Under the pieces are notes generated by a model that was not told where the DNA came from, searched no databases, and saw only the letters and a list, made by a program, of their open reading frames with translations. Below, one piece after another: positions 9,038 to 12,038 of a stretch of 64,000 nt of DNA; the stretch's first letter is position 1; every line of letters starts with the position of its first letter. Both the position numbers and the translations under genes were made by a program. Source of the DNA: Elusimicrobiales bacterium (GTDB taxonomy: Bacteria; Elusimicrobiota; Elusimicrobia; Elusimicrobiales; Elusimicrobiaceae); assembly GCA_028688475.1 (NCBI GenBank), contig JAQTYB010000002.1, positions 10,126 through 74,125 of the forward strand, written 5' to 3'.

Positions 9038-10492
9038 ATGACGACCACGCAAGGATTTAAAAGACGGGAAGAGAAGAGAGGCGGCGTTCTCGGCTGGCTG
9101 TCTTCCCTGCTCAACGGCTCCGGCGCGCAGACGGGCGCCGGCGCGGGCTCTCTCGGCGGCGGCGCGCTGTCGGGCGGCGCGGGCTCCGCCGCGGGCGGAG
9201 GCGGGGGGCTGCTCGGCGGGCTTTTCGCCACGAAGGCCGGGATAATGGGCGCGATTCTGGGCTGCGCCACGATAGCGGCCGGAATCGGCGTCGTTTATAA
9301 TTTCATGGGCCCTTCCTCCCAGCCGGTCTACCGGCAGGGCATGTTCCAGGAGAATTACGAGAGAAAAATGGTTGACGACGCCGCACGGGAACGGGCGCAG
9401 ACCGTTACCTCTTCGGTCGCGGCGGCAAAGAGCTCCTCCCTCGACTATTTCAAGCAGGAGGCGAAAGCGCTCGCGGGGCCCGGGGAACAGGCTCCCGGCG
9501 CGCCGAAGGAAGAGGCGAAGAAAAGCGATGGCGGCTCGGCTGACGCGCCCGCCGCCGCCGCGCCTGAAACCGCTTCAGGCGGCGCCGGCGCCGGCGTCGG
9601 CGCTGCGGTGTCCTCGCTGCAGAAAGACCCCGCCTTCCGCGCCCAGTTGACCACAGGGCTTGGCGGCGCCATGAAGCAGCTCGCGGGCGGCGCGGGGCTT
9701 TCCGGCGGAGTGGGACAGAATTTTCAGCAGATGAAATTCAGCCCGCCGCCGGCGGCGGGCGCCGGCGGACAATTGGCCGCCATGAAAGGCGGCGTGAACG
9801 CGAAACCGGTTGCCGCGCGGAGCATTCAGGCCGGCGTCAGGGGGCGCGGCGCGTACGGCCAGGCCAAAAGCGTGAAGGCGGTTGTTTCCAGCGCGCGGGG
9901 CGCGGATATGGCGCCGGCCAGGGCGGGCATCGTGCAGGCGTATGAAGGCGGCTCCACCGGCACCGGCACAGACTTGACCGGCGTTCCCACCGGCGGCACG
10001 TCCACCGGCGACTCGCCCGGCGTCAACGCCAACGTGCCTAACGACAATCTCGACACAAAAGAATCCACGCCGCCTTCGCCGGCAGCTCCGGCGAACGCCA
10101 CTCCGTGGAAAAAATGGTCTACTATAGCCATAATAGGCACCATAGTGTCGGCCTTGCTTATCGCCATCACGTCCAAGCTCGCGAAGAACCCGGCCAGCAA
10201 AAAGTTCGCGATGATAACCGGCATGCTGGCTATGGCCGCGGCGGGTCTTGTCATCGCCGCCGGCATGATACTGTTGCAGAAATTCGGGCAGAAATCCCAG
10301 GGCTATATGTACCTCGGGATAGGCGCGATGCTCGAAATGGCGGCTATGAAAGCGATGAGTTCGGGCCAGAGCAAGGACGCCAAGGGCGCTGCCAGCGGCA
10401 TAGCCACCGATGCCAACACCGCCAACATACAGCCGGGTTATGAAAGCGCAGGCAGCGGTTTCACGGGCGGGGCCGGGGCTGCCGGCGGATAG
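9038..10492 (+). CDS. hypothetical membrane protein (cluster gene E; paralog of F)
   Basis: 484-aa ORF with SD GGGAGGG. Basic N-terminus (KRREEKRGGVLGW), a Gly-rich stretch, a TM helix and a disordered region. After ATPW there are two C-terminal hydrophobic helices separated by KLAKNPASKK. Confidence 0.65.
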   Translation: MTTTQGFKRREEKRGGVLGWLSSLLNGSGAQTGAGAGSLGGGALSGGAGSAAGGGGGLLGGLFATKAGIMGAILGCATIAAGIGVVYNFMGPSSQPVYRQGMFQENYERKMVDDAARERAQTVTSSVAAAKSSSLDYFKQEAKALAGPGEQAPGAPKEEAKKSDGGSADAPAAAAPETASGGAGAGVGAAVSSLQKDPAFRAQLTTGLGGAMKQLAGGAGLSGGVGQNFQQMKFSPPPAAGAGGQLAAMKGGVNAKPVAARSIQAGVRGRGAYGQAKSVKAVVSSARGADMAPARAGIVQAYEGGSTGTGTDLTGVPTGGTSTGDSPGVNANVPNDNLDTKESTPPSPAAPANATPWKKWSTIAIIGTIVSALLIAITSKLAKNPASKKFAMITGMLAMAAAGLVIAAGMILLQKFGQKSQGYMYLGIGAMLEMAAMKAMSSGQSKDAKGAASGIATDANTANIQPGYESAGSGFTGGAGAAGG

Positions 10493-10502
10493 GGAGAGTT
10501 TT

Positions 10503-12038
10503 ATGGGCGGAAACGATATCCCGGAACTGAACATCCCGCGCTTCAAAAAGGAAGAGCCGAAAGAGCGCAAGGGTTTCCTTCCGTGGATTTTCGGCGGAGC
10601 GCGCACCGGCGCGTCGGTTCCGACTCTGGCCACCGGCGGCAGCGGCGGCTGGTTTGGTTTTCTGAGCGGCGTCATGGCCGGCTCGCGCGGCCTCGGCGCT
10701 TTCATAACCGGAAAACTTGGCCTGCTGGTTTCGACCGCCGTCATCACCGCCGTGGCGGCGGGCGTGGGGCTGGTGATAAGCAAATCCATAGAAGGGCCCA
10801 AGCTTTCGTCTTCCTCCTCGGCCCCGTATGTGCCGCTTGCGGAGCGGAGCGGCGCCGCCGCCTCCTCGCTGGAGATGGTTTCGGACACCAACAGGGGCAA
10901 GGTGGTGGGTTTCACGGACGAAGAGGCTTTCAAAAAAGCCGCGGAGCTCAAAGCCAGAGCCGCCGAAGAGGCGGCCAAACAGCGCGCCGGACAGGACGAC
11001 GGGCAGGTCCAAACCTCAGCGACCGGCGACGCCGGCGCCATGCTGCCGGCCATAGGCGGCCTGTCGTCCAGGCTTGCGGGAGGCAGCATCGGGCAGCTCT
11101 CTTCGCAGCTTGGCGGGAAATTCGGCGGCGCGCCCGGAAACTTCAGCAATAAATTCGCTTCGGGCGAATACGGCGCCAAAGGCGTCGGTTTCGGCGGAGT
11201 GATGGGCTCCTTTCAGAAACCCGTCTTCAACAAGCCCGGCAATCTCGCCGCTCTTGCCAGCGCGCGCAAGATAAACGTCAACGCCCGCACCGCCGCCAAG
11301 TTCGGCACGGGGCGCGGCTCTTTCGGGCAGGCTTTGGGCATAAGGACGCAGTTGGCAGCCAACAGGGGAGTGACAAAAGTTGACACGATGCGCAGCAACA
11401 CCGACCAGGCCTGGCAGGGCCAGACCATGAGCGGCGGGGTGTCCGCCTCCGCGGGCGGAGTGGACTCGGGTGACGGCAGCGGCGTAGTGTCAAGCCCCTC
11501 GCTGGATAACACCAACGTGCCCACCAGCGGCGGCGAAGTTGACACCTCCTCGCCTGACGCCGGAACCGCGAGCGACGCCACCCCCTGGGCCAAGCTGACA
11601 GCGCTGGCGCAGTTGCTGCTGCTCATAGCCAACATACTGGTCATGGTCGTCGGCCTGTTGTCCACCATAGCGAAGAAACTGATGCAGAACCCGATGACGG
11701 CGGCGATAGGCGCCATGGTGATGGCCATAGCCGTGATGGTGGCGGGCATAGCCGCGGCGTTGGGCGCCGCGGTGTCGGCGATAGGCAACATGCTCAAGTC
11801 CACTTACGGGCAGAGCATCGCCGGCACGGGGCTTATGACGTCTGGAGCAATAACAATGGGAGCGGCGTTTGCGGCGCTGGGCGGCGGGGCTATCGCCCTG
11901 ATGGCGTCGGTGATGGCGGCGATATCGAGCGGAGTTTCAATGCTCAGCTCCATGATGTCCATGCCCAGCCAGCCCAAACCCTCGCTTTCCGACGGCACGG
12001 GCACCAGCACCGGCACCACCAGCGTTTCCGTCAGTTGA
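10503..12038 (+). CDS. hypothetical membrane protein (cluster gene F; paralog of E)
   Basis: ORF 10410-12038 trimmed to ATG 10503, which has an SD (GGGAGAG) just after the E stop. It has the same architecture as E (KKEEPKERKGFLPW, GRGSFGQA, ATPW, KKLMQNP), with at least four Ala/Gly/Met-rich C-terminal helices. Confidence 0.65.
   Translation: MGGNDIPELNIPRFKKEEPKERKGFLPWIFGGARTGASVPTLATGGSGGWFGFLSGVMAGSRGLGAFITGKLGLLVSTAVITAVAAGVGLVISKSIEGPKLSSSSSAPYVPLAERSGAAASSLEMVSDTNRGKVVGFTDEEAFKKAAELKARAAEEAAKQRAGQDDGQVQTSATGDAGAMLPAIGGLSSRLAGGSIGQLSSQLGGKFGGAPGNFSNKFASGEYGAKGVGFGGVMGSFQKPVFNKPGNLAALASARKINVNARTAAKFGTGRGSFGQALGIRTQLAANRGVTKVDTMRSNTDQAWQGQTMSGGVSASAGGVDSGDGSGVVSSPSLDNTNVPTSGGEVDTSSPDAGTASDATPWAKLTALAQLLLLIANILVMVVGLLSTIAKKLMQNPMTAAIGAMVMAIAVMVAGIAAALGAAVSAIGNMLKSTYGQSIAGTGLMTSGAITMGAAFAALGGGAIALMASVMAAISSGVSMLSSMMSMPSQPKPSLSDGTGTSTGTTSVSVS

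Follow-up and report, generated by a model that had tools for sequence, protein, structure and literature searches.

The E and F genes and their membrane layout

The stretch of DNA analysed here, the window, comprises 64,000 nucleotides of contig JAQTYB010000002.1 (positions 10,126 to 74,125, forward strand) from the Elusimicrobiales bacterium assembly GCA_028688475.1. Within it lie two adjacent genes, E and F, which belong to a cluster in the order B-C-E-F-G-I/J (Table 1) and to which an earlier note, made from the letters of the window alone, had drawn attention. The open reading frames are found at the coordinates given in that note, and all of the segments of E and F quoted in it are present. 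Altogether, our results leave little doubt that E and F are a real and conserved pair of polytopic inner-membrane paralogs within a six-gene module.

The start of E lies 4 nt after a GGGAGGG Shine-Dalgarno sequence. As read from sequence, the true start of F is almost certainly the ATG at 10503, since this codon lies 10 nt past the stop codon of E, has GGGAGAG in front of it and is the point at which F orthologs begin (MGGNDIPELN...; M..N(D)LPE(I/L)N(F/I)). E consists of a basic N-terminus with a GG(F/V)L..L motif, a Gly-rich linker, a first transmembrane helix (TM1), a periplasmic loop of ~270 aa, three C-terminal helices and a variable tail. In F, an LPE(I/L)N(F/I) motif and a basic N-terminus precede TM1, the periplasmic loop carries the motifs YVP, SSL(D/E)M, GFGNKF, RS..D.AW.G, VTSPSLDN and PW, and four C-terminal helices follow. 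TM1 of E spans residues ~60-91 by hydropathy, both for the single sequence and averaged over the family, and the AlphaFold2 (AF2) model places the helix at residues 66-89; hydropathy puts TM1 of F at ~64-92. The C-terminal bundle of E is Met-rich and is marked by an invariant PW motif at its entry and by a K-Y-G-Q-K turn between helices 3 and 4. AF2 resolves it into helices at residues 357-382, 385-415 and 419-442 with a predicted local distance difference test score (pLDDT) of ~80, and family-averaged hydropathy agrees (~362-384, 386-414 and 420-440). Thus E has three C-terminal helices and not the two counted in the earlier note, whereas the estimate of at least four in F agrees with the four that hydropathy delineates (~364-391, 401-434, 438-461 and 466-487). 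The first three of these align with the bundle of E, and only the F type has the fourth. The general layout that had been proposed, an N-terminal transmembrane helix together with a C-terminal helical membrane bundle in both proteins, is upheld by hydropathy and, for E, by AF2.

The distribution of charge indicates how the two proteins are likely to sit in the membrane. Their N-termini are basic, with a mean of 4.8 Lys and Arg residues in E and 10.1 in F, net acidic segments precede the second transmembrane helix (TM2) in both proteins and follow TM1 in E, and E has a basic TM2-TM3 loop. Because of this pattern the N-terminus reads as cytoplasmic, and each sequence as that of a polytopic inner-membrane protein with one periplasmic loop of ~270 residues. 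This is an ordinary N-in arrangement by charge and hydropathy, although it had been described as an unusual topology, and it also occurs in permeases of the FtsX/LolC/MacB type. FtsX, LolC/LolE and MacB share with E and F a cytoplasmic N-terminus, TM1, a large periplasmic insert and three C-terminal transmembrane helices. LolC and LolE are, in addition, adjacent paralogs that work as a heterodimer. By analogy, E and F could be a highly diverged pair of this type that passes force from an unlinked ATP-binding cassette (ABC) ATPase to the periplasm. The order of the helices and the placement of the loop are the same, judging from hydropathy and AF2 on one side and general knowledge of type VII ABC permeases on the other, and the adjacent paralogs recall LolC/LolE. 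However, no match to an FtsX domain (PF02687-type) was obtained at permissive thresholds among the window proteins and 40 family members, and none of the ~60 clusters contains an ABC ATPase. Furthermore, the insert of E and F is rich in Gly, Ala and Ser and is predicted to be disordered rather than to adopt a Sabre- or Porter-type fold, the short TM2-TM3 loop leaves no room for a coupling helix, and F has an extra helix. We take the likeness to be one of topology only, and consider membership of this group very improbable.

The N-terminal anchor followed by a long, flexible region of low complexity with short interaction motifs is also reminiscent of TolA, TonB, FtsN and ZipA. Those proteins, however, have a single transmembrane helix and end in a folded soluble domain, whereas E and F return to the membrane as a Met-rich bundle of several helices, and neither matches these families in Pfam or NCBIfam.

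Table 1. Features of the E/F gene cluster in the window
Feature	Position	Strand	Description
Sigma-70-like promoter match	6541-6569	+	TTGAAA-17-TATACT, 18 nt before B; 10 of 12 positions, a consensus match only
Gene B	6587-7825	+	First gene of the cluster; N-terminal transmembrane anchor, then Gly/Ser-rich periplasmic region; no family match
Gene C	7975-8988	+	N-terminal transmembrane helix, Ala/Ser/Gly-rich loop, Met-rich C-terminal hydrophobic helix
Gene E	9038-10492	+	E-type paralog, 484 aa
E TM1	9209-9307	+	Residues 58-90; family consensus GGLFATKAGIVGMVLGGATIAAGVGVVYNF
E C-terminal three-helix membrane bundle	10106-10363	+	Residues 357-442; predicted from AF2, hydropathy and conservation
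Gene F	10503-12038	+	F-type paralog, 511 aa; frame open from 10410
F TM1	10689-10796	+	Residues 63-98
F C-terminal hydrophobic block	11583-11957	+	Residues 361-485; Met-rich
Gene G	12072-13289	+	Conserved cluster member; basic N-terminus with GFLP-like motif, transmembrane anchor, periplasmic region
Gene H	13349-14428	+	Outside the conserved cluster; signal peptide, Ser/Gly/Thr-rich, Cys-rich C-terminus
Gene I	14770-16443	+	I/J family; cytoplasmic tail, transmembrane helix, long periplasmic region
Gene J	16561-19965	+	Large member of the I/J family; conserved cluster ends with this gene
Intrinsic-terminator-like hairpin	19996-20027	+	13-bp stem with 10 GC pairs and a T tail; 31 nt past the J stop codon

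Paralogy, distribution and conservation

E and F can be aligned over 437 colinear residues with 27% identity (BLASTP with composition-based statistics, E=4e-8). Comparison of family profiles by hhalign gave a probability of 99.9% (E=1.5e-34) for alignments of 12 E and 4 F sequences, and of 100% (E=1.8e-46, 413 columns) for 58 E and 51 F orthologs. The similarity extends from the basic N-terminal motif through the third C-terminal helix and is, on these alignments, far beyond the effect of shared composition; pairwise and profile comparison thus bear out the claim that the two proteins are colinear paralogs. In a maximum-likelihood tree, the E sequences and the F sequences fall into clades of their own (support 97 and 98, respectively), which mirror one another in their species relationships. 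Since the two clades branch in matching fashion, the duplication as dated by this tree predates the radiation of the order, and E and F have co-diverged since. Families f5 and f7 are more distant; their first copy falls with E (support 96), and their later copies join F, though only weakly (support 61). Genomes of these two families hold up to four or five members of the E/F family. A few genomes carry tandem double E-type copies ahead of F (L040, 9776-12752; L081, 8816-11845; L035, 3097-6025).

An exhaustive profile hidden Markov model (HMM) search over 1.84 billion representatives of 50% identity clusters returned 590 representatives of the E/F family at E<=1e-3, 412 at E<=1e-10 and 149 at E<=1e-30. 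Full-length matches are mostly ~450-550 aa and shorter ones are fragments; all members that bear a name are annotated as "hypothetical protein" from Elusimicrobia or Elusimicrobiota. A word-indexed homolog search found 13 relatives of E and, for F, only near-identical copies amid low-complexity candidates; F orthologs were obtained as the genes directly downstream of E orthologs. Among 301 sampled genomes of the phylum, 46 encode the family, and all of these fall within one class. It is present in 19 of 22 genomes of family f2, in 19 of 26 of f7, in all four of f5 and in three of 88 of f1, the family to which the window belongs and whose searched genomes are mostly small (1.2-1.8 Mb).

Related loci were collected from species-representative genomes with an alignment of E only, and the 60 that were retrieved all come from metagenome-assembled genomes of Elusimicrobiota, mostly from groundwater where the isolate names tell the source. 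When a profile HMM for each operon protein was mapped onto these loci, the order B-C-E-F-G-I/J was complete in 31; the remainder are cut by a contig end, have a B12-radical-SAM (S-adenosylmethionine) gene between F and G, contain an additional E-type copy, or have an F or G gene that is split. At every one of the 48 loci with at least 1.5 kb beyond the last E-type gene, the next gene is of the F type. The homologs therefore occur as pairs, a point that the earlier note had left to be checked. The gap between E and F, which is 10 nt here, has a median of ~35 nt in the relatives.

Conservation over the 58 E and 51 F orthologs is concentrated at particular positions. TM1 is the best-conserved segment of E, with 19 of its 33 columns at least 90% conserved across the E orthologs, which would not be expected of a passive anchor. 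Next come the juxtamembrane PVY..LFQN.YYEEE and STLDMF motifs and, ahead of TM2, KGA[FY]GQAK, AFSGET, NDPSL..STPP and PW. F orthologs have in common LPEINF, NYVPAILRS..SSLDMF.DTNKG, GFGNKF, RSTQD.AWEG, IVTSPSLDN and SPW. Several loop motifs are common to E and F and in part to C (SSLDMF, G-x-G-A-[FY]-G-Q-A, DPSL and PW). The disordered ectodomain of the earlier note is accordingly a description that holds in part: modelled alone, the loop is poorly structured (pLDDT <50), but it contains some of the best-conserved motifs in the proteins. The C-terminal bundles are less conserved, yet they have fixed positions, among them the K-Y-G-Q-K turn followed by G..Y...G and, in E, A398, V405, G409, Q418, K419, G422, Y425 and G429, each conserved in ~50-58 orthologs. 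These regions are therefore more than low-complexity sequence.

The high Gly and Ala content of E and F and the long antisense open reading frames that overlap them raise the question of whether these are non-functional or fortuitous low-complexity frames in GC-rich DNA. Against this reading, hundreds of representatives are conserved over their full length, synteny is conserved in ~60 species, conservation is position-specific and both starts have Shine-Dalgarno sites; conservation effectively refutes it.

The cytoplasmic N-termini of E, F and G (9038-9100, 10503-10600 and 12072-12150) share a signature, a cluster of Lys, Arg and Glu followed by G-(F/V)-L-x-(W/A)-(L/I), to which the F type adds the invariant LPE(I/L)N(F/I). 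This signature could be a docking site for a cytoplasmic partner.

Searches for relatives outside the family were consistently negative. Pfam returned no family for E and F, and 40 diverse family members gave no recurrent Pfam or NCBIfam match; these searches included transporter and pilin families, a match to which would have spoken against the earlier note. In NCBIfam, the only match to E or F was cola_mem, which scored 15 bits where the cut-off is 150. Nor did any of the eight operon proteins have a meaningful match in Pfam, NCBIfam, PHROGs (only a 17-bit match) or PADLOC (none at all), and no catalytic, ATPase or transporter domain was found in any of them with these four resources. The best profile match in the PDB was a DASS symporter (E=0.037 over 75 residues), which we regard as nothing specific. 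A Foldseek search of the PDB with the AF2 model of E, which has low confidence outside the bundle, returned generic or designed helix bundles only (E>=0.3). Full-text literature searches turned up no description of this cluster. No connection between the six-gene module and a described protein family or fold could be detected, and exclusion places both the family and the operon outside all known kinds of system tested here.

Possible functions of the pair

The earlier note suggested that E and F could oligomerise into a pore or raft or insert into a second membrane. Spelled out, E and F would form pores or channels, or their C-terminal helices would enter the outer membrane or the membrane of a host or partner, with the N-terminal helix in the inner membrane and the disordered region spanning the periplasm. 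The two hydrophobic modules are indeed joined by a flexible region of ~270 aa, which is long enough to cross the periplasm, and Ala, Gly and Met abound in the C-terminal helices. However, the small-xxx-small spacing on which the pore argument leaned is not above compositional expectation in these helices. Compared with 5000 composition-matched shuffles, the C-terminal block of E has 8 such pairs where 10.4 are expected and that of F has 26 where 21.6 are expected (p=0.077); TM1 of E exceeds its shuffles, marginally (7 observed against 4.3 expected, p=0.045). A glycine-zipper channel former was rejected on this basis. The description of the F block as built almost only from A, G, M, I, V and S was also overstated, as Leu is its second most common residue. 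Polar or charged positions that could line a pore are not conserved, and across the orthologs no acidic or His residue is conserved in the predicted transmembrane segments of E or F. There is no sign that either protein enters a second membrane. The basic character of the TM2-TM3 loop is what a cytoplasmic loop of an inner-membrane protein would show, and alpha-helical insertion into the outer membrane is rare in bacteria. Finally, the examined loci have no conserved secretion system, secretin or chaperone near the cluster, and the tetratricopeptide repeat (TPR) genes that flank the cluster in the window are not conserved with it. On balance we think it unlikely that the pair forms a pore or reaches a second membrane.

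The same evidence bears on the proposed resemblance to chlamydial Inc proteins and to the translocators of type III secretion systems (T3SS) of the YopB/IpaB class. E and F are similar to these proteins in having two hydrophobic helices close together (a "bilobed" arrangement) and no other known domain, and T3SS translocators have TPR chaperones, which recalls the TPR genes on either side of the operon. In contrast to Inc proteins and translocators, E and F carry an additional transmembrane helix at the N-terminus, both have a third C-terminal helix and F a fourth one, and their inter-helix loop is basic, as is usual for proteins that reside in the inner membrane. Neither the window nor the related loci examined showed any T3SS genes, and the flanking TPR genes score far under the SycD/LcrH cut-off in NCBIfam. 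The resemblance is superficial, and nothing speaks for an Inc- or translocon-like role: no secretion-system context was found, and the TPR genes lie outside both the promoter and the terminator.

Two other machineries were considered and set aside. E and F are not type IV pilins or pseudopilins: both begin with a basic stretch that has a GFL motif, a Gly-rich linker then leads into TM1, and they match no pilin family. TadE- and Tad-like signals come from unlinked neighbour genes and not from E or F. A stator of the MotA/ExbB/TolQ kind was rejected because no operon protein has a MotA_ExbB-type Pfam match and neither E nor F has a conserved acidic transmembrane residue.

The composition of the C-terminal helices suggests a different kind of activity. 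Over the 51-58 orthologs, Met makes up 9.5% of these helices in E, 9.6% in F and 15% in C, compared with 3.0%, 3.0% and 5.0% in the respective TM1 helices. Such helices could present a flexible hydrophobic or thioether surface to hydrophobic clients, as in the M-domain of SRP54 or in Get3-type proteins, or could bind soft metals such as Cu(I), and the cluster would then be a device for handling or insertion and not a passive scaffold. Arguing against this idea, the C-terminal helices contain no conserved His or Cys partners, and neither Pfam, NCBIfam nor synteny revealed metal-resistance genes in the cluster. The enrichment in Met may just tune helix packing, and we judge a client- or metal-binding role to be improbable.

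A further possibility is raised by the neighbourhood of the cluster in families f5 and f7. There, the gene order is that of a TadG-like protein (P378), a small protein, an FtsH paralog with two transmembrane helices and an intact HExxH motif, C, E-like copies, G and I/J, and in many f7 genomes P378 and the E/F cluster lie within 5-11 kb of each other. P378 has a weak Tad match, and its neighbour in the genome of the window passes the TadE threshold. HflK and HflC are a paralogous pair of membrane proteins that cage FtsH, and they too are adjacent paralogs with N-terminal anchors and large periplasmic parts. E and F could stand in a similar relation to the membrane-bound FtsH paralog and the TadE/TadG-like proteins, as their clients, adaptors or regulators. 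However, E, F and their relatives do not have the SPFH/Band-7 domain of HflK/HflC. In the genome of the window, the module of P378, TadE-like protein and FtsH paralog is on another contig with unrelated neighbours, and in f2 genomes the P378 and E/F matches are likewise on different contigs. Moreover, the distribution of the module is far wider: P378 is found in 145 of the 301 genomes, including all 88 of f1, where E/F is found in three, and the two modules are hence not co-distributed. Because they are unlinked here and do not co-occur, we consider their adjacency in f5 and f7 to be lineage-specific synteny rather than a functional tie, and a role for E and F in FtsH or Tad function has a low probability in our estimation.

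In the window's own genome, the module in question, which is a conserved one (L088, contig C61, 143-9920, minus strand) contains sensor kinases, a LuxR-type regulator, a TadG-like protein of 379 aa, a TadE-like protein of 180 aa, the FtsH paralog (two transmembrane helices, intact HExxH), an anchored disordered protein of 366 aa and an S41/PDZ protease. The gene for the 366-aa protein, which follows the FtsH paralog, was considered as a counterpart of C, but it is not C-like.

We favor a model, at a probability of roughly 0.4-0.45, in which E and F are the core subunits, and the scaffold, of an undescribed Elusimicrobia-specific complex of the inner membrane and periplasm. We envision that TM1 packs against the C-terminal bundle, so that both ends of the loop would be held in the inner membrane with the loop projecting into the periplasm. 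E and F would form a hetero-oligomer that serves as a membrane platform, and the motifs shared among E, F and C would fold on binding each other or on binding G and I/J. The pair would thus be a structural scaffold or platform of an envelope apparatus and not an enzyme, an energised transporter or a motor. More speculatively, B, C, E, F, G and I/J together might build a new kind of envelope apparatus unique to free-living Elusimicrobia, in which doubly anchored membrane proteins have disordered periplasmic loops that assemble through common short motifs, on a platform of Met-rich helices, without counterpart among known machines for secretion, motility, division or tethering; this wider proposal is doubtful.

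Several observations weigh against the scaffold model or its extension. The cluster encodes no cytoplasmic or outer-membrane component, and "envelope apparatus" is therefore a guess about scale. It went unseen in the many small-genome relatives searched, with only three of 88 genomes of the window's family having it, and basic envelope function therefore does not require it. For both proteins, the larger part of the model has a pLDDT <50; the AF2 model of E, built from an alignment of 18 sequences, has a mean pLDDT of 47. The positive-inside signal is weak for the short loops of F, and the hhalign likeness between low-complexity families (C and E, B and C) may be inflated by composition.

Groundwater, sediments and guts commonly contain Elusimicrobia, and very few of these bacteria have been cultured. 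To our knowledge, the biology of their cell envelope is essentially unstudied. The present analysis defines a six-gene module that has been passed on vertically through much of a single class of the phylum and, if this module does specify an envelope apparatus, it would represent a lineage-defining feature of the cell biology of these bacteria. The scaffold model, if true, would provide an example of membrane proteins that work through conserved motifs in disordered periplasmic loops tethered at both ends. The family definitions, motifs, topology and gene order described here can be used as database models.

The surrounding genes of the cluster

The limits of the cluster can be drawn from sequence signals and from the related loci. 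The sigma-70-like promoter match upstream of B is likely to be the start of the transcription unit that holds E and F, and the hairpin downstream of J is the strongest terminator-like hairpin of the region. Two TPR genes that flank these signals (5233-6429 and 20062-21837) were considered as members of the system and rejected, as they have no counterparts in 68 related loci and lie outside the promoter and terminator. The gene beyond the second TPR gene similarly has no counterpart in the 68 loci. A B12-binding radical-SAM gene was also rejected as a partner: just a handful of loci have it between F and G (L001, 13051-14415; L022, 12424-13791) and it is absent from this position in the window, which points to a passenger. 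Relatives with a radical-SAM gene at the cluster also include L062, L071 and L080. The window likewise has no gene upstream of C to match the different radical-SAM gene that lies divergently upstream of C in three other relatives.

Among the proteins encoded next to the pair, C shares with E a membrane-proximal "NDPSL...P" module. In hhalign the two families match with a probability of 96.5% (E=7.7e-10) over 87 columns in the region up to TM2, a likeness that low complexity may inflate. On the other side of the pair, residues 311-404 of G form a predicted helical hairpin domain with eight conserved Cys residues, modelled by AF2 with a pLDDT of 96-98. With the model of G, Foldseek returned generic helix bundles only (E>=0.3) and no structural match in the PDB, and the hairpin may be a new small periplasmic domain. 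G begins with a basic N-terminus and an anchor like those of E and F, and its eight-Cys domain argues that the regions beyond such N-terminal anchors are periplasmic.

H, which is located between G and I, is confined to this lineage, with no tblastn match in the 68 related loci; its Cys-rich module has a weak knottin-like match to Toxin_12 (E=0.026). Other genomes have a single I/J family, which I and J each match, and this indicates that the gene was duplicated in this lineage; relatives usually have one I/J copy of ~1000 aa.

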